Part shown: in pieces, positions 1,750-29,852 of the stretch
Position numbering within the stretch: the stretch's first letter is position 1
How the letters are laid out: the number at the start of each line of letters is the position of its first letter
Origin: Alkalicoccus daliensis
GTDB lineage: Bacteria; Bacillota; Bacilli; Bacillales; Salisediminibacteriaceae
Direction: 5' to 3'
NCBI RefSeq assembly: GCF_900103955.1
Contig: NZ_FNIL01000014.1
Coordinates: forward strand, 1 to 32,000
DNA: 32,000 nt
Notes under the pieces: model-generated
Told to the model about the DNA's origin: nothing
Databases searched by the model: none
The model's input: only the letters and a program-made list of their open reading frames with translations
Position numbers and translations under genes: made by a program

Positions 1750-2352
1750 TCAGCGGATCCAGCCGTTTTCCCTGCTTAAGGAAATTGCTTCGATGCGGTT
1801 ACTTACCTCCAGTTTATCAAGAATTAATGACACGTAGTTTCTAACAGTACCGTTTGTAATGTGCAGGTCTGCAGCAATTTCTTTTGTCGTGCGGCCATCT
1901 GCGATGAGCTGCAGCACCTGGCCTTCCCGTTCTGTTAAGGGATTTGGATTATCATATACCATATCAATCAGTTCCGGAGCATAGGCTCTGCGCCCGTCCA
2001 TAATCGTGCGGATAGAGTTGGCCAATTCTTCACTTGGGCTGTCTTTTAAGAGATAGCCCTTTACCTTGGCTTTCCGCGCTCGTTCAAAATAACCTGCGCG
2101 GGCAAAAGTAGTAAGAATAATTACTTTACACCGGTGGTCTGACAAATCCTCTGCCGCTTCCAGTCCGGTTTTGACCGGCATTTCAATATCCATAATGCAA
2201 ACATCCGGATCCAGTTCTTTTACGAGTTCCACGGCTCTTTCTCCATTTTCCGCTTTTCCTACCACTTCCATATCTTCTTTTAAATCCAGCAGGGAGCCGA
2301 GGGCCCCGAGCAGCATCTGCTGATCCTCGGCAATGACAATGCGGATCATCAA
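1750..2352 (-). CDS. desR: Two-component response regulator, NarL/LuxR family (DesR-like)
   Basis: It has a receiver domain (IVIAEDQ...DPDVCIMDIEMP) and a C-terminal LuxR HTH (LTEREGQVLQLIADGRTTKEIAADLHITNGTVRNY). Its start overlaps the upstream kinase stop by 4 nt (ATGA). It lies downstream of a desaturase and kinase, as in the B. subtilis des-desKR locus. Confidence 0.8.
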   Translation of the reverse strand: MMIRIVIAEDQQMLLGALGSLLDLKEDMEVVGKAENGERAVELVKELDPDVCIMDIEMPVKTGLEAAEDLSDHRCKVIILTTFARAGYFERARKAKVKGYLLKDSPSEELANSIRTIMDGRRAYAPELIDMVYDNPNPLTEREGQVLQLIADGRTTKEIAADLHITNGTVRNYVSLILDKLEVSNRIEAISLSRENGWIR

Positions 2353-3485
2353 GCTTCCTCCTCCTTTTTCATATGCTGCACCACCTGCGGTACGAACATC
2401 GTGATCTTTGTTCCCTTTTGCGAGTCCATGGTCAGGGTGCCGTTGACGAATTCCAGCCGTTCCTTCATGCCCTGTATGCCGCTTTCCTGCATCGTTACGT
2501 TCGGCTGGGAAATGCCGATGCCGTTGTCTTCGATCACGATGGAAATGGCGCGGGGGCTCTGGGTTATCGTAATATCACAGCGGGCTGCCTGGCTGTGCTT
2601 AACCACATTCGTTACCGCTTCCTTCATGCACATACTGAGTGCGTTCTCTACCAGGAGCGGTACATTGGTGAACTGCGGATTGCCGTGCACGTAAAGTTCT
2701 ATCTGCGCGACTTTCAGTATTTCCTGGATGTGCAGCAGCTCTTCGCGGACTTTCATTCCTCTCATATCAGAAACCATTTCCCGGACTTCTTTCAGCGCGA
2801 GCCGTGCTGTCCGGTTTATATCCTTCATTTCATTCTGGGCTTCTCCAGGTTTTGCTTCCACCAGTTTTTCTGCGAGATCGCTTTTCAATCCGATTAATGA
2901 AAGCTTCTGCCCGAGGGTATCGTGCAGATCCCGCGCAATTCTCTGCCGTTCCTCCATAACCATCAGCTGGGAAATTTTCTCATTCGCATTTTCCAGCTGG
3001 TTCTCCAGCATCTCCTGTTTATTCCGGTTATAGATCGTAAAAGGAAGGAGGATTACTCCGACGAGGCTGATGACAACAAATGGCAGCTGCATGGTGAAAA
3101 TTTCGCTCTGCATGTAAAATCCTAAGCCGGCAGAAGAGAGTGCGGTGATCAAATTAATTATATACAGCGTGACAAATCCGGCTTTATTTCGGATGTTTCC
3201 AATGAAAAAAGCAAGGAACAAGAAAAAGTATACATAACCAAAATACAGTGTCATGCCCGTGCTGATGACAAGTTCTATCCCTACAGCGACATAGACAGTC
3301 CAGCCCTCTTTAATGAACGAGATCCGGTATACTGCGAAAAATAAAACGATCATCAGGACGCCTGCGATTATTTCTGTAAACGTCGACAAACGTATTACAA
3401 AGTAAAAAGGAAGCAGACAAAAAATAAGCCAGGCATATAAACTTAATCCTGTGGTCTTTGGGACGATATGAAACCAGTTCTGCAT
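2349..3485 (-). CDS. desK: Membrane sensor histidine kinase, HisKA_3 type (DesK-like thermosensor)
   Basis: It has about 5 N-terminal TM helices, an H-box (RIARDLHDTLGQKLS) and an HATPase domain (IEDNGIGI). The start was chosen at the ATG at 3485 (MQNWFHIV), preceded by GGGAGG. Confidence 0.75.
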   Translation of the reverse strand: MQNWFHIVPKTTGLSLYAWLIFCLLPFYFVIRLSTFTEIIAGVLMIVLFFAVYRISFIKEGWTVYVAVGIELVISTGMTLYFGYVYFFLFLAFFIGNIRNKAGFVTLYIINLITALSSAGLGFYMQSEIFTMQLPFVVISLVGVILLPFTIYNRNKQEMLENQLENANEKISQLMVMEERQRIARDLHDTLGQKLSLIGLKSDLAEKLVEAKPGEAQNEMKDINRTARLALKEVREMVSDMRGMKVREELLHIQEILKVAQIELYVHGNPQFTNVPLLVENALSMCMKEAVTNVVKHSQAARCDITITQSPRAISIVIEDNGIGISQPNVTMQESGIQGMKERLEFVNGTLTMDSQKGTKITMFVPQVVQHMKKEEEA

Positions 3486-3580
3486 GGCGGGCCTCCCTTC
3501 TTTCTCTCTTTTACAGTGTAACAAAAAGCCCTTTCCCGTGGTGGCAAAAGAGCTTTCTTTCTTCTATTATATTGTGAAAT

Positions 3581-4606
3581 TTACGCTGGTACTTTCTGCG
3601 TTGGCTTCACTTTATAGTTCTTTTTGAATTCGCGGAAGCTGACGAACGTTTTGCTTGTTTCGTCATAAAGACGGAACTGAACAGCTTTTAAGCTGGAGCG
3701 AAGCGTAATCGTCGTAACTTTCTGCAATGGTTTTGTCTGCTCGTGTGTTTTTTCCAGATGATAATTCGGAACCTTCGGGCTTAAATGGTGTACATGGTGG
3801 TAACCAATGTTCCCAGTCAGCCACTGTACCACTTTCGGAAGCTGGTAGTAGGAACTGCCGTCTACAGCTGCTTTCACGAAGTCCCAGTCTTCTTCATTCT
3901 CAAAATAGGAATCTTCGAACTGATGCTGTACATAAAACAACCAGATGCCGAGAGAACCGGAAATCATAAGAATCGGAAGCTGAATGATTAGAAACGCCTG
4001 CAGGCCGATTGCCCAGATCAGGAGCGCATAAATTACAGCGATAGAAGCGGTAATCAAATGCGTGTTCCATCTTTCTTTGCTGCGTGCACCTTTTCGGTTC
4101 ACGCGGTTGTCCCAGCCGAATAAAAGAATCGGGCCAAGACCGAACATGACGATCGGGTTACGGTACAAGCGGTATTTGAATCTTTCCCACTTGTCTGCAT
4201 TTGCATATTCTTCTACTGTCATAATCCATACATCACCGGTGCCTCTTTTATCGAGGTTGCCGCTTGTTGCGTGGTGAATAGAGTGACTTCTTTTCCATTT
4301 ATCGAAAGCGAAATGCGTAATAATTCCTGTTAACGTACCGACAACCCGGTTAGCTTTTGTATTCTTAAAGAAGGAACCGTGCGTACAGTCATGAAAAATA
4401 ATGAACGTCCGTACGACAAAGCCTGCGGCAAGAATAAGAATCGGAATCGTCAGCCAGTATGATACTGCCAGGCTTTGGTAGGCAAGAAACCAAAGCAGGA
4501 AAAAAGGAACGAGAGAATTTACGAGCTGCCAGATACTCTGCTTCATATCTGAGTTTGCGAAAGGGGCTACACTTTTTCTTAGTTCTGCTTGTTGTTGTTT
4601 ACTCAT
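3581..4606 (-). CDS. des: Membrane fatty-acid desaturase (Delta5-Des-like)
   Basis: Three histidine boxes are present: HDCTH, HSIHH and HHVHH. The RBS is CCAGGAGG. It lies directly upstream of desK-desR. Confidence 0.85.
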   Translation of the reverse strand: MSKQQQAELRKSVAPFANSDMKQSIWQLVNSLVPFFLLWFLAYQSLAVSYWLTIPILILAAGFVVRTFIIFHDCTHGSFFKNTKANRVVGTLTGIITHFAFDKWKRSHSIHHATSGNLDKRGTGDVWIMTVEEYANADKWERFKYRLYRNPIVMFGLGPILLFGWDNRVNRKGARSKERWNTHLITASIAVIYALLIWAIGLQAFLIIQLPILMISGSLGIWLFYVQHQFEDSYFENEEDWDFVKAAVDGSSYYQLPKVVQWLTGNIGYHHVHHLSPKVPNYHLEKTHEQTKPLQKVTTITLRSSLKAVQFRLYDETSKTFVSFREFKKNYKVKPTQKVPA

Positions 4607-8023: not shown

Positions 8024-8680
8024 ATGAAAAAGACACTACTCTCTACAGCAACTGCGGCATTTGCATTAACCCTTGCTGCCTGCGGAACGAACGATAATGA
8101 TGGAACTGATAATACTGCAAATACAAACACTAATACAGGAAACAATGGAGCAGATAACGCAGCAGTTGAAAATAATGAGGCAGAGAATAATCTGGACGAT
8201 ACGCCGGACAATAACGGTGCAGATACAGAGGAGACCAACAACGGCAACACGAATGAAATAGATGAAGTAGAAAACAACATGAATGAAAACGCAGGAGAAA
8301 ATGACGCAGGCACAGATGATAATTCTGACGAGCGTGCTGCAACAGACGGAGAATGGTATGAAGCATTAGGATTTAATGAGTTTCAGCTTGATGCAGAATA
8401 CGAAGATGGAGAATATGAGGTAGAGTACGAATATAACGATGGCAATCCGGAAGGCGAGATTGAAGACACCCGTGGCGGTGAAGATATCGAACTGGAAGGC
8501 GAAGAAGCCCTGCAGGAATTGGAAGAACCTTTAACAGAGCTTGATCTTACGGAGGACAGCTCCGAAGAGGAAATGATGGAGCAGGTAATTGCTGCATTTG
8601 ATCTGGAAGAAGATTATGACGAACTTGAAGTTGAAATTGAATTTATGGATGACAGTGATCTGGAATCAGAAAACGAATAA
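8024..8680 (+). CDS. Highly acidic lipoprotein with an N/D/T/G-rich linker and a C-terminal E/D-rich domain (possibly YusW/PepSY-like, unverified)
   Basis: The signal peptide and lipobox are MKKTLLSTATAAFALTLAAC. The mature part is dominated by N, D, E, T and G. The C-terminus has repeated 'EYEDGEYEVEYEYNDG' and 'ELEVEIEFMDD' beta-like motifs. Confidence 0.8.
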   Translation: MKKTLLSTATAAFALTLAACGTNDNDGTDNTANTNTNTGNNGADNAAVENNEAENNLDDTPDNNGADTEETNNGNTNEIDEVENNMNENAGENDAGTDDNSDERAATDGEWYEALGFNEFQLDAEYEDGEYEVEYEYNDGNPEGEIEDTRGGEDIELEGEEALQELEEPLTELDLTEDSSEEEMMEQVIAAFDLEEDYDELEVEIEFMDDSDLESENE

Positions 8681-9195: not shown

Positions 9196-9321
9196 TTAAT
9201 CGTCGTATTTATCAATTTCCGTTTGTTCTTCGACAGGATAAACAGTCTGCTGCAGTTCGTTGCAGCCGCTAAGTGCAAGGACTGCAAAAAGGCTGGTAAT
9301 CAGGGGAATAAGTTTTTTCAT
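9196..9321 (-). CDS. Small lipoprotein (41 aa) with an acidic tail
   Basis: The sequence MKKLIPLITSLFAVLALSGC gives a signal peptide and lipobox. A strong RBS (GAAGGAGG) precedes the ATG at 9321. The longer 98-aa version in the ORF track lacks an RBS. Confidence 0.6.
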   Translation of the reverse strand: MKKLIPLITSLFAVLALSGCNELQQTVYPVEEQTEIDKYDD

Positions 9322-9450: not shown

Positions 9451-11136
9451 ATGCAGAAACTTATGGAAGCAGTAAGGGCGGGACTGAATCACAATTCGGT
9501 AGAGATTCCACAGACAGATTATTCGCGTACATATTTCGACAAAGAGGAACAGGCGACTGTTTTTCTTTCTTTTTCAGAAAACGGTGCAAGAGCACGGGTG
9601 CTGCAGGGAAGAGGAGGCAGCCTCGAAGCAGCAGTGCAAGATGCAGTAAAAAAAGGAGAGGGCGTTACGGCAGATGCGGTAAAGCTGGACATTCTGACCG
9701 GGATACAGCCGGTAAATAAAGATACAAGCTGGATCAATATAAATAGACATGCACTTACTTATAAGCGCAGGGAAGACGGGCTCATGTTCGGTGACAGAAT
9801 CAGTCCGCTTATGTTTCTGCCGGAAGAAGTGGAAGCTTACGGGATGATCCGTGGCGGGAAGCTGCAGCAGGAGCATATTTTCCGTGCCTTTGATAAACAT
9901 CAGCTGCTTACGGAAGATCGTCTTTCCAAAGAAATCATTACTGAAGAATGGCACGACGTTTATAAATTCCGCACGCATTCTTTTTACATAGATGACGACG
10001 GTTACCGGGAGCTTTTCCGGGGACACCGTGTGTTCAATGAACTTCAGGCCGGAGATTTAAAAGAAGCTGTGAAGCTTTCGAGGGACAATTATTTTACGCA
10101 GGCAGTAAATGCCCAGGGGAAGTTCGTGTATTCCTTTCAGCCGCAGGATAACCAGGTTCCGAAAGGCTACAACATTCTCCGTCATGCAGGAACAGCCTAT
10201 TCCATGCTTGAAATACAGGAATTTTTTCCGGAAGAACAGCTGCAGCGCACGATTGAAAAAACGATCCGTTACCTGCTGAAGAAAGTGAAGCGGATAGAAG
10301 TGAACGGTACCGATGCGCAGGTTATCGTGGAAAACGATAATATTAAGCTCGGCGGCAACGGTCTGGGAATTATTGCGCTCGCGCAGTATACGAAGGTGAC
10401 AGGAGACAGACAGTATATTCCTCTTATGCGGGATATGGCGAAATGGATGCTCACGATTCAAGATGAGACGGGAAAGTTTTCCGTGCACAAACAGATTTAC
10501 TCCTCCAAGGAACATACGGATTTTGTTTCTCATTATTATTCAGGAGAAGCAATTCTTTCGCTTGTACGTCTTTATCAGGTAGATCCGGATGAAGCATGGC
10601 TCGACGCGGCAGAAGGAGAAGCAAATTATTTAATTCATCGCCGGGACAGCAAGGAGACGAAAAAAACAATTACACACGATCACTGGCTTCTTTACGCCTT
10701 AAATGAACTGCATCAGGAACGGCCGAAAGAAGATTACGCCGCGCATTCTTATTTTATTGCAGAAGCTATTATGGACACCCAGCGGCTGGATCAGCATGAA
10801 GTCGACAGAGAATGGGTGGGGTCCTATGAAATGAAAGGCATTCCCCGTTCGACACCGACTGCCTGCCGCACGGAAGGATTGGGCGCTGTCTACCGGCTGG
10901 CGCAGCGCCAGGAGAAAAAAGACATGGCAGAGAGATGCAGACATGCGATGGCAGAGGCTGTGAAATTCCAGCTGCAGATGCAGTTTCAGCCGGAAAGTGT
11001 ATTATATCTGGACCATAAAAAACTGTGCCTCGGTGCACTGCATGAAAGCTTAACAAGCTATGAAATCCGTAATGATTACACGCAGCACAACATTTCCAGT
11101 TTTTTATCACTTTATAAGATTCTGCTCGAAAAATAA
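9451..11136 (+). CDS. Hypothetical 561-aa protein with a likely alpha/alpha-toroid C-terminal domain (terpenoid-cyclase/prenyltransferase/six-hairpin-like)
   Basis: The RBS AGGAGGG precedes the ATG. Motifs include NILRHAGTAYSMLE, GGNGLGIIALAQY, QDETGKF and HYYSGEAILSLVRLY. No catalytic signature was recognised. Confidence 0.7.
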   Translation: MQKLMEAVRAGLNHNSVEIPQTDYSRTYFDKEEQATVFLSFSENGARARVLQGRGGSLEAAVQDAVKKGEGVTADAVKLDILTGIQPVNKDTSWININRHALTYKRREDGLMFGDRISPLMFLPEEVEAYGMIRGGKLQQEHIFRAFDKHQLLTEDRLSKEIITEEWHDVYKFRTHSFYIDDDGYRELFRGHRVFNELQAGDLKEAVKLSRDNYFTQAVNAQGKFVYSFQPQDNQVPKGYNILRHAGTAYSMLEIQEFFPEEQLQRTIEKTIRYLLKKVKRIEVNGTDAQVIVENDNIKLGGNGLGIIALAQYTKVTGDRQYIPLMRDMAKWMLTIQDETGKFSVHKQIYSSKEHTDFVSHYYSGEAILSLVRLYQVDPDEAWLDAAEGEANYLIHRRDSKETKKTITHDHWLLYALNELHQERPKEDYAAHSYFIAEAIMDTQRLDQHEVDREWVGSYEMKGIPRSTPTACRTEGLGAVYRLAQRQEKKDMAERCRHAMAEAVKFQLQMQFQPESVLYLDHKKLCLGALHESLTSYEIRNDYTQHNISSFLSLYKILLEK

Positions 11137-14674: not shown

Positions 14675-14722
14675 TTTGACTATCTTTGACTATAGTATAG
14701 TTTGACCTTTACTGACTTTCAA
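14675..14722 (-). promoter_or_regulatory. clpE sigma-A promoter overlapped by two CtsR operators
   Basis: On the minus strand, -35 TTGAAA (14717-14722) and -10 TATACT (14694-14699) are separated by 17 bp. AGTCAAAgatAGTCAAA (14675-14691) matches the CtsR consensus (A/G)GTCAAA-NAN-(A/G)GTCAAA perfectly. AGTCAGTaaaGGTCAAA (14701-14717) is a second, imperfect site. Confidence 0.7.
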
Positions 14723-14760: not shown

Positions 14761-14803
14761 AAAAAAAGATGTCTCCGCCTCCGTGGCAGAAAACATCTTT
14801 TTT
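14761..14803 (-). terminator. Terminator downstream of the lipoprotein gene 14810-15013
   Basis: The hairpin AAGATGT...ACATCTT is flanked by A and T runs. Confidence 0.65.
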
Positions 14804-14809
14804 AAGCAG

Positions 14810-15013
14810 TTACGTGTTGTTACTTTCGTTACTCGTACCTTCTTCATTTCCGGTGTCATGTTCCATTTCGTTTCCGGTATCAGTACTGTTGATTCCGTTG
14901 TTTTCATTGAATCCATTTTCCGGAGCGTTGTTATTATCTGTTCCGCCGCAGCCTGCGAGCAGTGCTCCCGCAAGAAAAGTTGCTGCAGCAGTTAATTGAA
15001 GTGATTTTTTCAT
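14810..15013 (-). CDS. Small hyper-acidic N/D/E/G-rich lipoprotein (67 aa), paralog 1 of 3
   Basis: MKKSLQLTAAATFLAGALLAGC provides the lipobox LAGC. The RBS is AATAGGAGG. The mature peptide is low complexity (N, E, D, T, G). Confidence 0.8.
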   Translation of the reverse strand: MKKSLQLTAAATFLAGALLAGCGGTDNNNAPENGFNENNGINSTDTGNEMEHDTGNEEGTSNESNNT

Positions 15014-15069
15014 TTTGGTATTCCTCCTATTATCCTTCGTTTATCTTCTCATTCACGGTTACAAAAAAA

Positions 15070-15099
15070 TTGAAACATATTTTCCAGGATTCATATAAT
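15070..15099 (+). promoter_or_regulatory. Candidate sigma-A promoter on the plus strand, divergent from the 15013 gene and pointing at motif copy B and antisense to 15311-15514
   Basis: TTGAAA (15070-15075) and TATAAT (15094-15099) are separated by 18 bp. No credible plus-strand CDS lies downstream. Confidence 0.4.
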
Positions 15100-15169
15100 T
15101 TCACACACGAAAACCAATGTTACCATGATGCTTCAGACGAAAAAGTATGAAGCATAGAGGAATTTCTAT

Positions 15170-15248
15170 TACTGCTTCACTCCCGGCAAAGTCTTTCTCG
15201 AAGGTATGCTCTCTATTAATTTAATCAAAGCGGTGCACGGCTTCCATC
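15170..15248 (+). repeat. Bipartite conserved motif, copy B (TACTGCTTCACT - 53 nt - GCACGGCTTCCATC)
   Basis: The blocks are identical to copy A at 7687-7762. It is preceded by the hairpin ATGCTTCA-N12-TGAAGCAT (15128-15155), which repeats the TGCTTCA core. Confidence 0.4.
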
Positions 15249-15260
15249 AATCTGCAGGAG

Positions 15261-15299
15261 CAAACATAAACAAGGAATTCTCTTTCGAAAGAGAATTCC
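15261..15299 (-). terminator. Rho-independent terminator of lipoprotein gene 15311-15514
   Basis: On the minus strand, GGAATTCTCTTTCGAAAGAGAATTCC is followed by a T-rich tract (TTGTTTATGTTTG). Confidence 0.8.
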
Positions 15300-15310
15300 C
15301 AGAAACCAGC

Positions 15311-15514
15311 TTACATATTGTTCTCGTTCTCTCCGACAGGTTCACCATTATCATCCAGCATCGTATTGCCGTCTGCATCGTTATCAATCAATTGTTCTTC
15401 TTCATTCACTTCATTGTTATCATCAATACCTTCATTTGCATTATTACCGCAGCCGGCAAGAATACCAGCAGATAACAAAGTGAATACTGCAGAAATTTGT
15501 AAAGACTTTTTCAT
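15311..15514 (-). CDS. Small hyper-acidic N/D/E-rich lipoprotein (67 aa), paralog 2 of 3
   Basis: MKKSLQISAVFTLLSAGILAGC provides the lipobox. The RBS is GAAGGAGG. The N-terminus is near-identical to those of the neighbouring paralogs. Confidence 0.8.
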   Translation of the reverse strand: MKKSLQISAVFTLLSAGILAGCGNNANEGIDDNNEVNEEEQLIDNDADGNTMLDDNGEPVGENENNM

Positions 15515-15604
15515 TTATAATTTCCTCCTTCAAAAATACTCTTCTTATAAAAAGACTATTACACGATTCTTGCTTTTTAAAACGTTGTTTTCCAGGAGAA
15601 ATAA

Positions 15605-15634
15605 TATAAAAAGGCTCCCGGAAGTCCGGGAGCC
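15605..15634 (-). terminator. Rho-independent terminator of the poly-Asp lipoprotein gene
   Basis: On the minus strand, GGCTCCCGG-actt-CCGGGAGCC is followed by TTTTTAT. Confidence 0.85.
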
Positions 15635-15645
15635 CGCTTTAAAAA

Positions 15646-16032
15646 TTAAAGGTCGTCGTCATCGTCGTCATCGTTCATCATGCCATCATCATCGTCTTCG
15701 TCATCGTTCATCATGCCATCATCATCGTCGTCGTCATCGTCATTCATCATTGCGTCATCATCATCATCGTCGTCGTTCATCATAGCATCGTCATCGTCGT
15801 CATCGTCATTCATCATTGCGTCATCATCATCGTCATCGTCGTTCATCATTGCGTCATCGTCATCATCGTCATCGTCATCGTTCATCATACCGTTATCTTC
15901 AGTATTGTTTACTGTGTTATCCGTTCCGGTATTCGTATTATTTACATCGTTATCTGCATCGTTACCGCAGCCTGCAAGCACCCCTGCTGCGAGTAGTCCT
16001 GAGATTGCTGAAATTTGTAATGATTTTTTCAT
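15646..16032 (-). CDS. Poly-aspartate repeat lipoprotein (128 aa), paralog 3 of 3
   Basis: MKKSLQISAISGLLAAGVLAGC provides the lipobox. The RBS is TAAGGAGG. An N/T/D linker is followed by seven MMNDDDDDDD(A/G) units. Confidence 0.85.
   Translation of the reverse strand: MKKSLQISAISGLLAAGVLAGCGNDADNDVNNTNTGTDNTVNNTEDNGMMNDDDDDDDDDAMMNDDDDDDDAMMNDDDDDDDAMMNDDDDDDDAMMNDDDDDDDDGMMNDDEDDDDGMMNDDDDDDDL
15649..15888 (-). repeat. Intragenic tandem repeat, 33-39-bp period x7, encoding MMN-(D)7-9-(A/G/L)
   Basis: The periodicity is visible in both DNA and protein. The units differ by synonymous GAT/GAC changes. Confidence 0.85.
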
Positions 16033-16397
16033 TGTAATAATTCCTCCTTAATAATTGCTTTCATGTCTCTACTCCCTCTCATTACACTTAGCCGTAATGT
16101 TAAAACATTCTACACGACTTTTTGACACTTTTTCATATTGTGCACCTATTTCATAATGGATGCATAACAAATGTCTACATATTAATAGCAAAATTAAACG
16201 ACGAAAGATTATCTTTTGAAAGAATTAAAATAAGAAAAAATGTGTATTTACAAAAGCAGCTAATTCCTCCATAAACCAATTTGTAATAAACTATTAATTA
16301 GGAAAATAGAAAACACTCCCCTTAAAGCGCTTGTTCGTAGTATGATAAAGAGATACTAATGAACCGGAGTACGGTTGGAAAATGAGGGAAATAAATA

Positions 16398-21169: not shown

Positions 21170-22777
21170 ATGGATGGCATGAACAGGATGACGGGGTTTG
21201 CCTCCGGAATGGATATAAACCAGATGGTATCAGATTTAATGCGAGCGGAGCGGCAACCGCTGGAACCTATGCAGCAGAATTCTATGGAGCTGCAGCTGAA
21301 AATTGATGAATACAGGCAGATGAATTTAAAATTTTCGGAGTTTCGCAACAACACGTTTGACGGTATTTTACGCTCCTCTAACATGCGGTCAAGAGAAACT
21401 GTCAGTTCCAATGAAGCTGCTGTGACTGCACGGGCTTCCGCAAGTACGCCAGAGGGAAGCTACACCATATCCGATGCTTCTCTCGCCAGGGCGGAAATGC
21501 ACGTATCTGAAGCGGCGGGAGAAAACGGGTCTTTTGTAAATGACCTAGCTGCATTTGACCGCAGTGAAAGTTTTCTCCAGCAGGCAGAACTTTTACATGG
21601 CGTAGAAGAAGGCCAGACCGAAGCTGCGTTTGCTATTGCAGTATTTGATGAAAATGGTGCTGCAGTGCCGCAGGAATTTACTGTGGATGAAAGCAGCAGT
21701 CTCGATGATATTCTCAATGATGTGAATCAGTCTGCATTAGGTGTACAGGCTTTTTATGATGAATTCTCCGGAAGGATTTCTCTGCAGAGAGCAGAAACGG
21801 GCGTTTTTAATGAGACTGGGAATGAAATTCAGTTTGGGGAAATAGATGCAGACGGGGAGTTTATAGAAGCTGAACCAGGAGAGCAGCATTTCTTTTCCAC
21901 GGCCTTTGGGCTGGAAAACAATACGCCGATGCAGGAAGCAGCAAATGCGGCCTTTACGATGAATGGGCTCAGTGAAATGGAAAGACGCAGCAATTCTTTT
22001 GAAATAAACGGGTTAAATGTAACTTTGAATCAGCCCTTCACTGAACAAGTATCGATCGGTGTATCTTCAGATGACGAAAAAATATTTGATACAGTAATGG
22101 GATTTGTTGAAGATTATAATGAGCTCGTAAGTGCAATGCAGGAAAAAACAGGGGAAGAATATTTCCGGGATTATGCACCTCTAACAGATGAGCAGCGGAG
22201 AGAATTATCAGACACAGAGGTGGAAATGTGGGAGGAAAAGTCAAACAGCGGCCTGCTGCGGAGAGACAGTATTATTTCGGGTGCGGTCAGCTCCATGAGA
22301 TCCCAGTTTTATGAACCGGTGAATACAGCGGATGGTGATCAGGCTTTCACACAGATTACAGAAATAGGCATAACTACTTCCACCGATTTCCGCCAGGGCG
22401 GGATACTGGAAGTGAATGAGGAGCAGCTGCGCGCCTCTATCGCGGAAGATCCGGATGCGGTATTTAACTTATTTGCCGCAGATGGAGAAACACAGGAAGA
22501 GCGCGGAATAGCGAGAAGGCTCCGTGCTACGCTCGACGACAGCATCCAGCAGATCGGACAGCGTGCCGGACGCACGGAAATGTCCGGGAATCAGACATTT
22601 ACTCTCGGCAGGGAGCTCGAACAGCAGTCAGATCAAATTTCGAATTTTGAGCGACGGATGCAGCAGGTCGAACAGCGTTACTGGAGCCAGTTCAATGCTA
22701 TGGAACAGGCAATGGCCCGTGCGAACGCACAGGCCGAACAGCTGATGTCGCAGATGGGCGGCAAGCAGGGAATGTAG
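21170..22777 (+). CDS. fliD: Flagellar filament cap protein FliD, copy 1 (535 aa)
   Basis: The N-terminus is GFASGMDINQMVSDLMRAERQPL. The C-terminal FliD helix is FERRMQQVEQRYWSQFNAMEQAM. Confidence 0.85.
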   Translation: MDGMNRMTGFASGMDINQMVSDLMRAERQPLEPMQQNSMELQLKIDEYRQMNLKFSEFRNNTFDGILRSSNMRSRETVSSNEAAVTARASASTPEGSYTISDASLARAEMHVSEAAGENGSFVNDLAAFDRSESFLQQAELLHGVEEGQTEAAFAIAVFDENGAAVPQEFTVDESSSLDDILNDVNQSALGVQAFYDEFSGRISLQRAETGVFNETGNEIQFGEIDADGEFIEAEPGEQHFFSTAFGLENNTPMQEAANAAFTMNGLSEMERRSNSFEINGLNVTLNQPFTEQVSIGVSSDDEKIFDTVMGFVEDYNELVSAMQEKTGEEYFRDYAPLTDEQRRELSDTEVEMWEEKSNSGLLRRDSIISGAVSSMRSQFYEPVNTADGDQAFTQITEIGITTSTDFRQGGILEVNEEQLRASIAEDPDAVFNLFAADGETQEERGIARRLRATLDDSIQQIGQRAGRTEMSGNQTFTLGRELEQQSDQISNFERRMQQVEQRYWSQFNAMEQAMARANAQAEQLMSQMGGKQGM

Positions 22778-25653: not shown

Positions 25654-25721
25654 GATAAATAGCATAATATATCGGGTAATTTACAGTTCCATACAACAGA
25701 ATAGTCAGAGGAGTGAAAGAC

Positions 25722-27509
25722 ATGCGGCTTAGCGGATTTGCTACCGGAATGGATATCAATCAGATGGTGAAGGATTTAATGCAGGCGGAAAAAATGCCTT
25801 TAAAAAAATTAGAGCAGAATAAAACATCTACACAGTGGAAGATTGATCAATACAGAGAAATTAATGTGAAGATGGATAAATTCAGAAACAATACGTTTGA
25901 TAATGTCATGCGACGTGCCAATATGATGATGAATACGGTAGTGAGTTCCAACGCATCGCTTGTCACTGCGACAGGAAATGCATCTACGTTAGAAGGAACG
26001 CTGCGTTTAACAGAAGTGAAAAAACTGGCTTCCGCAGCTTCAAATGCGAGCAGTGCTCCGGTAGCTGATAAATTAAATGTGACCGGAAAACTTTCTGAAC
26101 AGAATTTTAAAGCAGCGGAAGGGGAAATGTGGAAAACAGGAACGGTAAACAGGCAGACGGTGACCGTACAGCAGTCACAATCTACCATTGATTTGAACGT
26201 GGAGCTCGGAAATCCTGATTCCACAGTCGTGCGGGTCAATGGGGTTTCTTATAAGGTAGTAGAAGAAATGCCGGAAGGCGGACTAACTGCAACACAGGTA
26301 ATGCTTGATGCGGATTCCAAACAGCTTGTATTCGGCTCTGCTTTAGCCCGGAATGCTAAGGTGGAAGTTGTGACGGCAATTGAAGGAGAAGGAACGGATA
26401 AATTCTCCATGAATTCTATTACTACTTTTAATAAAGACGGCCAGGAAGTAAAGGAAAACTTTATTGTTACCGGTAATCAGACTATGAATGAAGTTATGTC
26501 TATGCTGAACCGTTCAAAAGCAGGCGTCAGCACTTTTTATGATACAGGAACGGACCGTGTCTCCATCGTACGGAACGATACTGGAATTTTTGCTCCGGAA
26601 GGCAGTGAAATGCGTTTTTCCGGCTCCTTTTTCGAACAGGGACTAAAGCTGAGCGATACGAATGAAATTGCCGCACAAAATGCAACGTTTACGATTAACG
26701 GTTTGGAAACAACGAGGCGTTCCAATACTTTTTCGGTCAACGGCATGAACATTACGCTGCATGAAACTTTTGCAAACCGGGAAGTGAATTTAAACGTTAA
26801 GCGGGATACAGATAAAATTGTAGAAACGATTATGTCTTTTGTAAATGAATATAATGAACTTCTCGAACTGGTGAATGGTAAAACAAGCCAGGAATTTTTC
26901 CGGGATTATCCACCGCTGACAGAAGAAGAACGGCGTGAGTTATCAGAGCGGGAAGCAGAACTCTGGGATGAAAAAGCAATGAGCGGCCTGCTCCGCAATG
27001 ATTCCATGCTGAGAAACGGCATGAATAATTTCCGCCAGCAGATGTACGGCCAGGTAACAGGCGGGATTGATACGCAAATACGGCAGCTTGCCCAGATAGG
27101 AATTACCACTACGTCCAATTTCCGTGACGGCGGAAAGCTGGAAGTAAATGAAGATCGTCTTCGTGCAGCTATCGAAAGCGATGCAGAGGGTGTCTATCAG
27201 CTGTTCGCGGCAGATGGTCCCACCCAGGCAGAGCAGGGAATTGCCAGAAGAGTCCGGACGAGTGCGAATACAATGATTGAAGCGATTGCGCAGAGAGCCG
27301 GAGGAATGCGGGGACGAACGGTGAACCAGCAGTTTACGCTCGGCCGGGAAATGAACAATATCGAAGACCGGATGACGAATTTTGAGCGGCGGATGAAGCA
27401 GGTGGAGCAGCGCTACTGGACACAGTTTACTGCGATGGAAAAAGCGGTATCCCGGGCAAATTCCCAGGGAGAAGCACTTTTTGCACAAATGTACGGAGGC
27501 ATGCAGTAA
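25722..27509 (+). CDS. fliD: Flagellar filament cap protein FliD, copy 2 (595 aa)
   Basis: The N-terminus is GFATGMDINQMVKDLMQAEKMPL and the C-terminus is FERRMKQVEQRYWTQFTAMEKAV. The ATG at 25722 is 8 nt after AGAGGAG. Confidence 0.85.
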   Translation: MRLSGFATGMDINQMVKDLMQAEKMPLKKLEQNKTSTQWKIDQYREINVKMDKFRNNTFDNVMRRANMMMNTVVSSNASLVTATGNASTLEGTLRLTEVKKLASAASNASSAPVADKLNVTGKLSEQNFKAAEGEMWKTGTVNRQTVTVQQSQSTIDLNVELGNPDSTVVRVNGVSYKVVEEMPEGGLTATQVMLDADSKQLVFGSALARNAKVEVVTAIEGEGTDKFSMNSITTFNKDGQEVKENFIVTGNQTMNEVMSMLNRSKAGVSTFYDTGTDRVSIVRNDTGIFAPEGSEMRFSGSFFEQGLKLSDTNEIAAQNATFTINGLETTRRSNTFSVNGMNITLHETFANREVNLNVKRDTDKIVETIMSFVNEYNELLELVNGKTSQEFFRDYPPLTEEERRELSEREAELWDEKAMSGLLRNDSMLRNGMNNFRQQMYGQVTGGIDTQIRQLAQIGITTTSNFRDGGKLEVNEDRLRAAIESDAEGVYQLFAADGPTQAEQGIARRVRTSANTMIEAIAQRAGGMRGRTVNQQFTLGREMNNIEDRMTNFERRMKQVEQRYWTQFTAMEKAVSRANSQGEALFAQMYGGMQ

Positions 27510-28461: not shown

Positions 28462-29105
28462 TGGAGGAGATAGTTCAGGATAGCGTGGTGACATGTCAGT
28501 ATAGAGGATTTATGTGTCATTATAGAGGGTTTGCATGTTAGTATAGCCGGTTTGTATTAAAGCATAGCGGCATCGGAGTAAAGCATAGCGGATTTGGAGT
28601 AAAATAAGGTGCGTGACAGTAAAATAAGCGGGCACGGACGTAAATTAGCTTCTTTATTTTAAGTTTCTCTATCGGGGAACGGTTTTAAATGAAGAAGGTA
28701 ATATGCTTTTATGGCTTTTGAGTCCGAATCAGTACAGGATAGCGTGGTGACATGTCAGTATAGAGGGTTTGCATGTTAATATAGCCGGTTTGGATTAAAG
28801 CATAGCGGCATCGGAGTAAAGCATAGCGGATTTGGAGTAAAATAAGGTGCGTGACAGTAATATAAACGGGCACGGACGTAAATTAACTTCTTTATTTTAA
28901 GTTTCTCTATCAGGAAACGGTTTTAAATGAAGAAGGTAATATGCTTTTACGACTTGCGCTCTCGGGTCAGTAAAGTATAGCGTGGTGACATGTCATTATA
29001 GAGGGTTCGCATGTTAGTATAGCCGGTTTGGATTAAAGCATAGCGGCATCGGAGTAAAGCATAGCGGATTTGGAGTAAAATAGGGTGCGTGACAGTAAAA
29101 TAAGC
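28462..29105. repeat. Higher-order tandem repeat array 2. It belongs to the same family as array 1, with units of about 259 and 238 bp plus a partial third unit.
   Basis: The unit start CAGGATAGCGTGGTGACATGTCAGTATAG recurs at 28476 and 28735, and in diverged form at 28973. The sub-repeats (TAAAGCATAGCGGCATCGGAG...) and the core (TAAATTAGCTTCTT...GAAGAAGGTAATATGCTTTTA) are homologous to array 1. Confidence 0.9.
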
Positions 29106-29170
29106 TCCCCTCTTTCCCGGAACAATGAGCGGCTTCCCTTCATTTTGGAAAAGAATTTCTAGCATACACC

Positions 29171-29197
29171 TAAAACTTTCGACCTGTGTGCCGATAT
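29171..29197 (+). promoter_or_regulatory. Sigma-D-type promoter upstream of fliS
   Basis: TAAA (29171-29174)-N15-GCCGATAT (29190-29197) is an exact consensus match. Confidence 0.7.
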
Positions 29198-29285
29198 AAG
29201 GGACAGGTTGAAAATAACTGCTCGGCAGAAGAGTCTATGTGTTATGTGCCGAAGATTTTAATGATAGAAAGGGTGTCCATGTAGC

Positions 29286-29852
29286 ATGGCTGCAAACAAT
29301 CCATACGCAACATACAAGCAGAATTCATTTGAGACAAAGTCCGCAGGGGAATTAACGTTAATGCTTTATGAAGGCTGCCTAAAGTTTATAAAGCGGGCAG
29401 AAAAGGCAATAGATGACAATCAGATGGAAGAAAAGAATACGAATCTTATTAAAGCGCAGAATATTGTACGTGAGCTGATGGTTACTTTGGATATGAAAGT
29501 GGCAGTTAGTAAAGACATGCTGCCGATGTATGATTATATTTTAAATCAGCTGATTGAAGCAAATATGAAAAACGATAAAGAAGCACTTCAGAATGCTGCA
29601 CAGTTTGTGGCAGATTTCCGAGATACGTGGAAGGAAGTTATTAAAGCAGACAGGCAGTCCCGTCACGGGCAGAAAGCCGCCCCAGCTGAGCCGGCAGCAG
29701 CACCGTCTGAACCGGCCGCAGCTCCTTCGAAACAAGATGCTACCGTTAATCCGTATGCCAAGGCGCGGATGCAGAATCCATATGCAGCAAATGCATCAAA
29801 TCCTTATGCAAAAGCGAAGCAGGCAGCCGCCGCTGCTGCGGCAAAAGGGTAA
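29286..29852 (+). CDS. fliS: Flagellin-specific export chaperone FliS with a ~55-aa low-complexity C-terminal extension
   Basis: The N-terminus NNPYATYKQNSFETKSAGELTLMLYEG and a four-helix FliS core are present. The tail is AAPAEPAAAPSEPAAAPS followed by 3x NPYA. Confidence 0.85.
   Translation: MAANNPYATYKQNSFETKSAGELTLMLYEGCLKFIKRAEKAIDDNQMEEKNTNLIKAQNIVRELMVTLDMKVAVSKDMLPMYDYILNQLIEANMKNDKEALQNAAQFVADFRDTWKEVIKADRQSRHGQKAAPAEPAAAPSEPAAAPSKQDATVNPYAKARMQNPYAANASNPYAKAKQAAAAAAAKG

Follow-up and report, generated by a model that had tools for sequence, protein, structure and literature searches.

Three tandem genes for small, strongly acidic lipoproteins in Alkalicoccus daliensis, a candidate cation-binding layer at the membrane

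What might a cell gain from three consecutive genes whose predicted products amount to a lipid anchor and an acidic tail? The question is raised by a 32,000-nucleotide stretch of Alkalicoccus daliensis DNA (contig NZ_FNIL01000014.1 of assembly GCF_900103955.1, positions 1 to 32,000 of the forward strand; hereafter the window), in which three paralogous genes lie in tandem on the minus strand, 5' of clpE. We call them g1 (14810-15013), g2 (15311-15514) and g3 (15646-16032). They specify prolipoproteins of 67, 67 and 128 amino acids, whose mature parts of 46, 46 and 107 residues carry net charges of -10, -15 and -58 and contain no lysine or arginine. Judged from their sequences, the trio are genuine, separately signalled lipoprotein genes under selection. 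We tentatively read their products as lipoproteins that consist of a tether only and make up a polyanionic layer that binds cations, divalent ones above all, a reading to which we give substantial weight while stopping short of calling it probable.

The initial annotation had placed three minus-strand open reading frames (ORFs) here, each with its own ribosome-binding site (RBS) and terminator, and this was borne out. An AGGAGG can be read from the sequence 9 nucleotides (nt) 5' of the ATG in g1 (15023-15028) and g2 (15524-15529) and 10 nt 5' of it in g3 (16043-16048), all on the minus strand, and a minus-strand hairpin follows each gene. The hairpin after g3 (15612-15635) resembles an intrinsic terminator, with a 10-bp stem containing eight G-C pairs and a T tail, while that after g2 (15273-15300) has a 12-bp stem and a weak T tail. 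The terminator-like hairpin of g1 and its run of T (14772-14792) fall between g1 and the clpE promoter with its CtsR boxes. Four terminator-like sites were found in the region, against 1.3 expected from shuffled sequence. A functional operon of the trio with clpE is ruled out by this intervening terminator and the CtsR-box promoter region. A sigma-70-type promoter-like site lies 5' of g3 (ATGAAA-18-TAGAAT, 9/12; 16107-16136, minus strand) and gives weak evidence of a promoter. Two plus-strand ORFs that overlap the genes (15318-15785 and 15680-16051, encoding poly-Ser and His/Arg-rich products) were rejected as mirror-image artefacts of the repeats, having neither lipoprotein nor start signals.

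The three products begin alike, with MKKSLQ(I/L)(S/T)A...LAGCG and a lipobox cysteine at residue 22. Their signal peptides, residues 1-21, correspond to 14951-15013 in g1 (Cys22 codon 14948-14950), 15452-15514 in g2 (Cys22 codon 15449-15451) and 15970-16032 in g3 (Cys22 codon 15967-15969), all on the minus strand. We applied a rule in the style of PROSITE PS51257, which asks for K or R within the first 7 residues, an uncharged h-region, the pattern [LVI][ASTVI][GAS]C and a cysteine at position 15-35. The trio and P0123, a relative from a sister species described below, all have two K/R among the first 7 residues and a lipobox (LAGC in g1-g3, LTGC in P0123) with its cysteine at position 22, and they match the PS51257-like regular expression. 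Compared in pairs, the trio share 14-18 of their first 23 residues (BLASTP E 3e-11 to 5e-15), which upholds the description of these signal peptides and lipoboxes as near-identical; g1 aligns with g2, g3 and P0123 in the signal peptide only. That g1-g3 encode real lipoprotein-type products is very probable.

Could such short frames be accidents of base composition? Across the first 23 codons of the paralogues and P0123, the ratio of non-synonymous to synonymous change (pN/pS) was 0.16-0.41, with pS at 0.6-0.8, near saturation, and pN at 0.12-0.26. Codon differences among the seven repeat units of g3 comprised 86 synonymous and 6 non-synonymous changes, almost all of them GAT/GAC swaps. The 254 mature residues of g1, g2, g3 and P0123 include not a single lysine or arginine, against 12% in the window's large proteins; lysine can be reached by one substitution from the abundant Asn and Glu codons, yet none occurs in the mature parts. 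When we simulated the substitution of 30-40% of sites, the probability of finding neither a stop nor a K/R codon was ~0.001-0.005. As a control we scanned ~0.94 Mb of DNA flanking clpE in 80 other bacteria, which yielded no short acidic lipobox ORF with an RBS. A chance origin of the trio is excluded.

The mature parts had been described as consisting almost only of N, D, E, G and T. The lack of basic residues stands, but g3 does not fit the description. Mature g1 (N13 G7 E7 T6) and g2 (N12 E8 D7 G5) have 26-28% N and 22-33% D/E, together with T/S, whereas mature g3 (D56 N16 M14) is 52% Asp and 13% Met. Tandem repeat finding (TRF) and repeat analysis resolve it into an in-frame array of seven [A/G]MMN(D/E)7-9 units with a period of 33 nt (15652-15891, minus strand); TRF itself reports 15662-15888, period 33 and 6.6 copies. 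The methionines, at 13% against a background of 3.2%, always stand as MM ahead of each Asp run. A motif scan located a calcium-loop-like Dx[DN]xDG in g2, within residues 44-55, DNDADGNTMLDD (15350-15385, minus strand). The six-residue motif occupies residues 44-49 of g2 and 51-56 of P0123 and is trivially contained in the poly-Asp of g3. In P0123 the surrounding region, DNDADGNIIEEE, fits DxDxDGxIxxxE, and the form common to g2 and P0123 is DNDADGN(T/I)..(D/E). The mature parts had also been said to have no recognisable fold, in agreement with our searches and with the model of g2 that AlphaFold2 (AF2) built from the family alignment, whose predicted local distance difference test (pLDDT) of 58 and predicted template modelling score (pTM) of 0.20 give g2 no confident predicted fold. 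Local pLDDT rises to 75 at residues 51-60, just past the DNDADG motif.

We then asked in which organisms the locus recurs. In the protein search the ClpE of the window matched best that of Alkalicoccus saliphilus (76%), followed by a protein from a Joint Genome Institute (JGI) metagenome at 75%, those of A. luteus and B. daqingensis at 73%, and then Evansella and Salipaludibacillus. The nearest relatives by ClpE are haloalkaliphiles (PMC6588035, PMC13013795), with growth of A. saliphilus being optimal at pH 9 and 15% salt (PMC6588035), and we therefore infer a haloalkaliphilic lifestyle for the host, in line with the halophile or alkaliphile first supposed. A sister species is represented by the Logan contig SRR34348042 (L085), whose ClpE is identical to that of the window at 92% of protein and 82% of DNA positions. 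Its gene order is the 3' end of a g3 orthologue (ending in TMGDDDDDDDDL and a stop), a G+C-rich terminator, P0123, a terminator, CtsR boxes and clpE. The hairpin after the g3 orthologue is homologous to the g3 terminator, and one similar to the hairpin of g1 follows P0123. This 76-residue lipoprotein is the orthologue of g2 (49% identity, E 5e-16; profile match E 8e-11). The sole long identical stretch between the two is DNDADGN, whose codons differ by 4 synonymous and 0 non-synonymous changes; the chance probability of a shared 7-mer is P = 0.0012. No counterpart of g1 was found at the clpE locus of L085, and g1 is therefore probably a lineage-specific duplicate. As an observation on the 5' regions, a sequence recognised by eye, TCGTGT(A/G), is common to all three genes of the trio, 45-85 nt before their starts (15090-15110, 15555-15568 and 16105-16118, minus strand), and the related TTGTGCAATAGT lies 5' of P0123 in L085; TCGTGT(A/G) may be part of a promoter or operator shared by the trio.

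A. luteus and B. daqingensis are syntenic with the window in fliD, rhodanese, DUF4870, DUF1256, a small gene, clpE, a GH127-like gene and YusW. The small gene, present as one copy at the A. luteus clpE locus, encodes MKKSLKLTAATGMIAAGVLAGCGND...AMND7-8(MMND8)n and is 64% identical to g3 over 100 amino acids (L089 9573-9809, L091 2457-2795, L093 2471-2809). The number of MMND8 units is two in one A. luteus assembly and five in another and in B. daqingensis, against the seven units of g3 in the window. The ClpE proteins of the 2-unit A. luteus and the 5-unit B. daqingensis are identical at 696/699 positions (99.6%), and outside the repeats their small genes show few or no differences; the difference in unit number is either a slippage polymorphism or a short-read assembly collapse. 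Disruption of the frames in relatives, which the initial annotation had named as a reason to give the genes up, was looked for and not seen, the ORFs being kept in L085, A. luteus and B. daqingensis. Its statement that no characterised family has this architecture agrees with the lack of any match, but the family is not unique to the window, as the g3 homologues upstream of clpE in A. luteus and B. daqingensis demonstrate. Synteny searches through the Genome Taxonomy Database (GTDB) representatives returned only the distant genera Gracilibacillus and Oceanobacillus, with no context in common with the window.

These homologues came to light through synteny. Word-indexed homology searches with g1 and g2 returned the query itself only, and an exhaustive profile hidden Markov model (HMM) search of 1.84 billion representatives gave 15 weak matches. 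Its one true homologue was P0123, the marginal matches owed their scores to the signal peptide, and it failed to return the genes of A. luteus and B. daqingensis. A scan of metagenome contigs with the back-translated family alignment gave one irrelevant match, Pfam, NCBIfam and PDB sequence searches assigned g1-g3 to no family, giving only similarities below threshold that lay in the signal peptide, and the searchable literature held no description of tether-only poly-acidic lipoproteins or lipid-anchored poly-Asp that we could find, nor anything that bears directly on acidic or Asp-rich lipoproteins of Bacillus or of organisms from soda lakes. In the protein collection, those homologues and analogues that have a name are annotated as 'hypothetical protein'. 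The distribution of the family is probably underestimated, because composition filters hide low-complexity proteins. The short-read contigs L081 (Logan SRR4159521) and L085 both stop inside the g3 repeat array; the poly-Asp repeat thus breaks assemblies, which may further account for the poor representation of the family in databases.

Several known families were considered and rejected. NF058647, the LytA family, scores 15.2 bits for g2 (residues 1-58) and 14.7 bits for the window's 218-residue YusW-like protein against a cut-off of 110, with g1 and g3 unlisted; the match is confined to the signal peptide region, and no lytABC-type context (lytB/lytC) was found beside the trio, whose neighbours are clpE, a DbpA-type helicase gene and DUF1256. 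A cytochrome c551 assignment reaches 15.8 bits against an NCBIfam cut-off of 118, and the CxxCH haem motif was not found in the trio. Membership in YusW was rejected for g1-g3 by the lack of a PF14039 match, and derivation from the neighbouring YusW gene was rejected too, there being no similarity beyond composition. Because the defining features of each were tested and failed, the trio lie outside LytA, EF-hand, Excalibur, cytochrome c551 and YusW. A mobile-element or defence context was also discarded, the neighbours being housekeeping genes.

If the trio belong to none of these families, what do they resemble? Ordinary lipoproteins of the relatives, namely ComEC-like Lactamase_B and YusW proteins (L082 10654-11952; L084 8151-9551; L090 13723-15090; L089 14105-14710), carry tethers of 50-100 amino acids after the lipobox cysteine that are acidic, rich in N/S/T/E and almost devoid of K/R. 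An acidic, K/R-poor lipoprotein tether thus appears to be a lineage-wide trait, and by sequence the N/D/E/T-rich composition is that of an ordinary lipoprotein tether of this lineage. Since the lineage's lipoproteins carry such tethers ahead of a domain, the trio look like the tether alone. The window contains an example of the complete arrangement in the 218-residue lipoprotein on the plus strand at 8024-8680, where a tether of ~95 amino acids rich in N/D/T/E precedes a YusW domain (PF14039, 73.5 bits against a gathering threshold of 27, residues 118-209); A. luteus has syntenic YusW lipoproteins. The composition of this tether is the same as that of mature g1 and g2, and homology to g3 is undetectable beyond composition. 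The initial annotation had counted this protein among five poly-anionic peptides of the window, which is overstated because one of the five is this protein with a folded YusW domain. Another of the five, the 41-residue acidic-tailed lipoprotein at 9196-9321, MKKLIPLITSLFAVLALSGCNELQQTVYPVEEQTEIDKYDD, is present and belongs on the minus strand; its mature part has 22 residues, with 7 D/E and 1 K.

Other short acidic lipoproteins occur among alkaliphilic Bacillaceae. Evansella sp. LMS18 encodes, ~2.4 kb 5' of clpE, a 98-residue lipoprotein of five NNDADVEVEE repeats with no K/R and a net charge of -33 (L090 7280-7576), whose signal peptide differs from that of the trio, and Alteribacillus and Halalkalibacter encode lipoproteins of 64 and 67 amino acids. 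These are analogous to the trio, without demonstrable homology. Methionine recurs in the acidic tails of g3, its homologues in L089, L091 and L093, and P0124, P0127 and P0128, as MMND7-8, EMEMEE and EDMEDEEEMEDD; the last three proteins are not independent evidence for methionine, because the profile that selected them has Met columns.

The tentative reading stated at the outset can now be set out in full. After Sec-dependent export, Lgt would lipidate Cys22 and LspA would cleave before it, leaving a diacylglyceryl-cysteine anchored in the outer face of the cytoplasmic membrane and followed by a disordered polyanion without a globular domain. In effect g3 would be a lipid-anchored poly-aspartate of seven MMND7-9 units, g2 a polyanion with one conserved Dx[DN]xDG loop-like motif and g1 a plainer N/E/G/T-rich duplicate. 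Jointly the trio would add dense fixed negative charge, with no basic residues, to the space between membrane and wall, and cations would therefore be attracted. We expect g3 to bind Ca2+/Mg2+ with low affinity and high capacity as a condensed-charge motif, g2 to bind Ca2+ more specifically at DNDADGN, and the layer to exert a general Donnan attraction on Na+ and H+ that raises their local concentration electrostatically; repeat number (2, 5 or 7 units depending on the genome) would set binding capacity. Disordered proteins bind Ca2+ at ~100 uM through Excalibur-like DxDxDG..E and condensed-charge Asp-rich motifs, in which Asp is favoured over Glu and hydrophobic residues also play a part (PMC8391695), and Dx[DN]xDG recurs as a Ca2+ motif (PMC3123361). 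Retention of metals and H+ has been proposed for the acidic polymers on alkaliphile surfaces (PMC12457358). Free Ca2+ and Mg2+ are scarce in carbonate-rich alkaline brines, and a membrane-anchored, high-capacity binder would therefore be a sensible adaptation.

Several findings weigh against this reading. Carboxylates, with a pKa of ~4, cannot buffer protons chemically at pH 9-10, and any effect on H+ would therefore have to be electrostatic. The canonical 13-residue EF-hand loop (PROSITE PS00018) matches in no family member, and for the g2 motif the Excalibur pattern (DxDxDGxxCE) fails, the only cysteine being that of the lipobox and there being no Pfam match. A model of pure charge leaves the conserved Met pairs of g3 unexplained. 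The promoter scan gave g1 and g2 no confident promoter and no match comparable to the site 5' of g3, and the housekeeping neighbours (clpE, dbpA-type helicase, DUF1256) offer no functional link. The difference of two versus five repeats could be an assembly collapse. A. saliphilus and the JGI metagenome contig have no small lipoprotein gene 5' of clpE, and the gene is therefore dispensable, or sited elsewhere, in some haloalkaliphiles.

A related idea shifts the weight from divalent cations to protons. The Asn-rich acidic tether of Evansella clarkii cytochrome c-550 has been proposed as an H+ capacitor (PMC12457358, PMC4332470), and the trio might, though we consider it unlikely, be a dedicated capacitor of this type, a free-standing version of the Asn-rich, acidic, hydroxyl-rich 'H+ carrier segment' that Yumoto and colleagues place between lipid anchor and haem domain in the cytochrome c-550 of obligate alkaliphiles, and would then hold respiratory protons in a hydrogen-bond network at the membrane surface for the ATP synthase. 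The composition of g1 and g2 matches the c-550 segment, which has 10 D/E and 9 N/Q within Asn4-Asn37 in a protein with <3 basic residues overall (PMC12457358), the host clusters with Evansella and Alkalicoccus, and the N-terminus of g1 gives a weak NCBIfam match to cytochrome c551 (E 0.01). The capacitor idea for c-550, however, is itself a hypothesis without mutant tests (PMC12457358). The trio have neither a cytochrome domain nor CxxCH, g3 is poly-Asp and not Asn-rich, no such gene stands beside clpE in A. saliphilus, and no respiratory or ATP synthase genes lie nearby.

The narrow distribution of the family invites the opposite view, which we hold to be improbable, that the trio are functionless or near-neutral young genes, arisen by duplication of the signal-peptide and tether region at the 5' end of lipoprotein genes, which lost the globular domain and survive as lineage-restricted ORFs. 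The query-only matches for g1 and g2, the 15 weak matches in 1.84 billion and the empty metagenome contigs agree with it, as do the resemblance of the mature parts to ordinary tethers, the lack of a g1 counterpart in L085 and the fast evolution of g2, 49% identical to its orthologue where ClpE is 92% identical. Yet ORF, length, charge and synteny are preserved across species whose ClpE is only 73% identical, changes within the g3 repeats and within the g2 motif are synonymous by a wide margin, neither stops nor Lys/Arg codons have accumulated despite easy mutational access, and each gene has retained its own RBS and terminator.

The arrangement of conserved N-termini and divergent repetitive tails in a tandem cluster recalls the Mycoplasma Vlp/Vsp/Vsa coats, in which Vlps combine N-terminal domains that are conserved with a region III made of repeat units (PMC10535464). 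On that model slippage would alter the access of phage, enzymes or predators to the membrane, and repeat number does vary by genome (7, 5 or 2), including two versus five at a ClpE identity of 696/699. We nonetheless regard a size-variable surface coat as quite improbable. The lipoproteins of a thick-walled Gram-positive sit beneath the peptidoglycan and not at the cell surface; no promoter homopolymer suited to on/off switching was found, the only run being a T7 5' of g1, with none >=6 nt 5' of g2 or g3; Pfam similarity to mycoplasma families is lacking; and the repeat difference may be an assembly artefact.

Copper and iron are almost insoluble at pH 10, and SilE and PcoE are disordered Met-rich periplasmic proteins that g3 resembles in spirit only. 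The trio could be imagined to capture Cu or Fe for respiratory enzymes, the Met pairs and carboxylates of g3 making a membrane-anchored metal sponge. In its favour, methionines make up 13% of mature g3 against 3.2% background and always stand as MM before an Asp run, A. luteus and L085 preserve the M(M)N-D7-8 unit, other short acidic lipoproteins of alkaliphiles also mix Met with D/E, and metal scarcity at high pH and metal retention by acidic surface polymers are discussed in PMC12457358. It is very improbable all the same, as g3 has no His or further Cys ligand and no MxxM or MxM spacing, the Met-rich matches were picked by a Met-containing profile and are not independent, and no copper or iron genes lie nearby.

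Enterococcus sex pheromones are cut from lipoprotein signal peptides, and the best-conserved part of the paralogues and orthologues is indeed the signal peptide while the tails diverge fast, but the notion that the signal peptides are the functional product, as signalling peptides, and the acidic tails mere carriers is hardly credible, since the tails are clearly under their own selection, no receptor, Rap/PrgX-type or plasmid genes lie nearby, and conservation of the signal peptide is expected anyway among recent paralogues.

Further features of the window were recorded alongside. Between the g1 terminator and clpE, on the minus strand, lie AGTCAAAGATAGTCAAA (14675-14691) and GGTCAAA (14701-14707), which we take to be CtsR boxes by their consensus; the clpE promoter region is almost identical in L085 at 836-940. 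Two related long tandem arrays occur, one at 1-734 (a 262-bp unit x2.8, the first two copies identical) ahead of a GNAT gene (806-1744) and one at 28497-29210 (a 238-bp unit x3, 89% and 61% identity) upstream of fliS (29286-29852). Both are built of ~21-bp sub-repeats such as AGTAAAGCATAGCGGATTTGG, each unit carries GAAGGAGG and an ATG, and Rfam has no match for them; binding sites for a regulator or a repeated element are possible readings. Scans of the whole window for Rfam families and tRNAs found nothing. Two paralogues of fliD, for the flagellar cap, stand 3 kb apart (21170-22777 and 25713-27509), and A. luteus also has two (L089 410-2188 and 4476-6059). A 561-residue protein (9451-11136), with only a sub-threshold GH127-like Pfam match, is conserved in A. 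luteus and B. daqingensis (534 amino acids), again beside YusW and clpE. A des-type cluster that would bear on membrane adaptation lies at 1750-4606; its genes are for a LuxR-type response regulator (1750-2352), a histidine kinase resembling DesK (2349-3524) and a fatty-acid desaturase (3581-4606).

Why would a cation-binding layer of tether-only lipoproteins matter? There is still no agreement on how alkaliphiles produce ATP and acquire metals at pH 10, and the proposals invoke negative charge at the membrane surface and hydrogen-bond networks. The candidates examined to date are difficult to delete cleanly, being wall polymers, an S-layer protein or a tether joined to an essential-type cytochrome. 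A small, conserved and separately transcribed gene whose whole product is a lipid-anchored polyanion would be a clean genetic handle, and A. luteus has a single copy. A wider proposal, which we put forward as a rather unlikely one, is that haloalkaliphilic Bacillaceae encode tether-only lipoproteins as a class that has so far gone unnoticed, among them true poly-aspartate in which the number of MMND7-8 units can be tuned. These would set the fixed charge at the outer membrane face, and with it local H+, Na+ and Ca2+/Mg2+ activity, and would be needed for energy conservation or divalent supply at high pH; in that case the long-debated retention of protons or cations at the alkaliphile surface would become directly testable by the deletion of one to three tiny genes. 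The failure of the exhaustive HMM search also shows that low-complexity proteins are systematically under-detected by standard searches, and anchored poly-Asp peptides have a possible practical use as cation binders or antiscalants. Should the function prove trivial, the trio would still be a tidy, lineage-restricted, fast-evolving gene family selected for composition.

How do the trio compare with known systems? With the Mycoplasma Vlp/Vsp/Vsa proteins they have in common tandem paralogues, a conserved signal peptide and lipobox, and divergent, charged tails of in-frame repeats; variation in repeat number would be a further likeness only if the difference among assemblies is not a collapse. 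There is no sequence similarity, no promoter homopolymer switch is present and the repeats of the trio are pure polyanion; the host is a free-living, walled Gram-positive, and the immune-evasion rationale of Vlp is therefore absent. Like NF058647 LytA of B. subtilis, they are small, very acidic Bacillaceae lipoproteins of uncertain role. The calsequestrin acidic tail, Aspein and Asprich carry long Asp runs, with low-affinity, high-capacity Ca2+ binding and control of CaCO3 formation. The long Asp runs of g3 are alike and would be relevant in carbonate-rich soda environments, but this is an analogy only: the eukaryotic proteins, which buffer Ca2+ or act in biomineralisation, come from unrelated lineages and are not lipoproteins but soluble or matrix proteins. 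Starmaker, named in PMC8391695, belongs with them. Of the short Ca2+ motifs described in disordered proteins (PMC8391695, PMC3123361), g2 and P0123 carry Dx[DN]xDG, and g3 would be an extreme condensed-charge Asp motif with hydrophobic Met; the g2 motif differs in failing the PROSITE EF-hand and in lacking the Excalibur Cys-Glu, flanking helices and a fold.

The closest parallels in presumed function lie among alkaliphiles, and the layer would be a protein-encoded counterpart of their acidic wall polymers. Teichuronopeptide, poly-gamma-glutamate, teichuronic acid and SlpA are likewise fixed polyanions outside the alkaliphile membrane, and they are credited with holding back cations, metals and protons and with supporting growth at high pH (PMC12457358). 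Whereas these are wall-linked polysaccharides or gamma-peptides or a large S-layer protein, the trio would be ribosomally made, lipid-anchored alpha-peptides of 46-107 residues with an encoded repeat number. The E. clarkii c-550 tether, on a comparison of composition only, has the diacylglyceryl-cysteine anchor that is predicted for the trio and, directly after it, a stretch in which Asn, Asp/Glu and hydroxyl residues abound and basic ones are nearly absent, the same origin in alkaliphilic Bacillaceae and the same proposed site at the outer membrane surface (PMC12457358, PMC4332470). The trio differ in having no haem or other domain, so that the tether is the whole protein, and in the poly-Asp and Met pairs of g3, and homology has not been demonstrated. 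The cation and proton roles proposed for the trio agree with the published hypotheses on the alkaliphile surface (PMC12457358).

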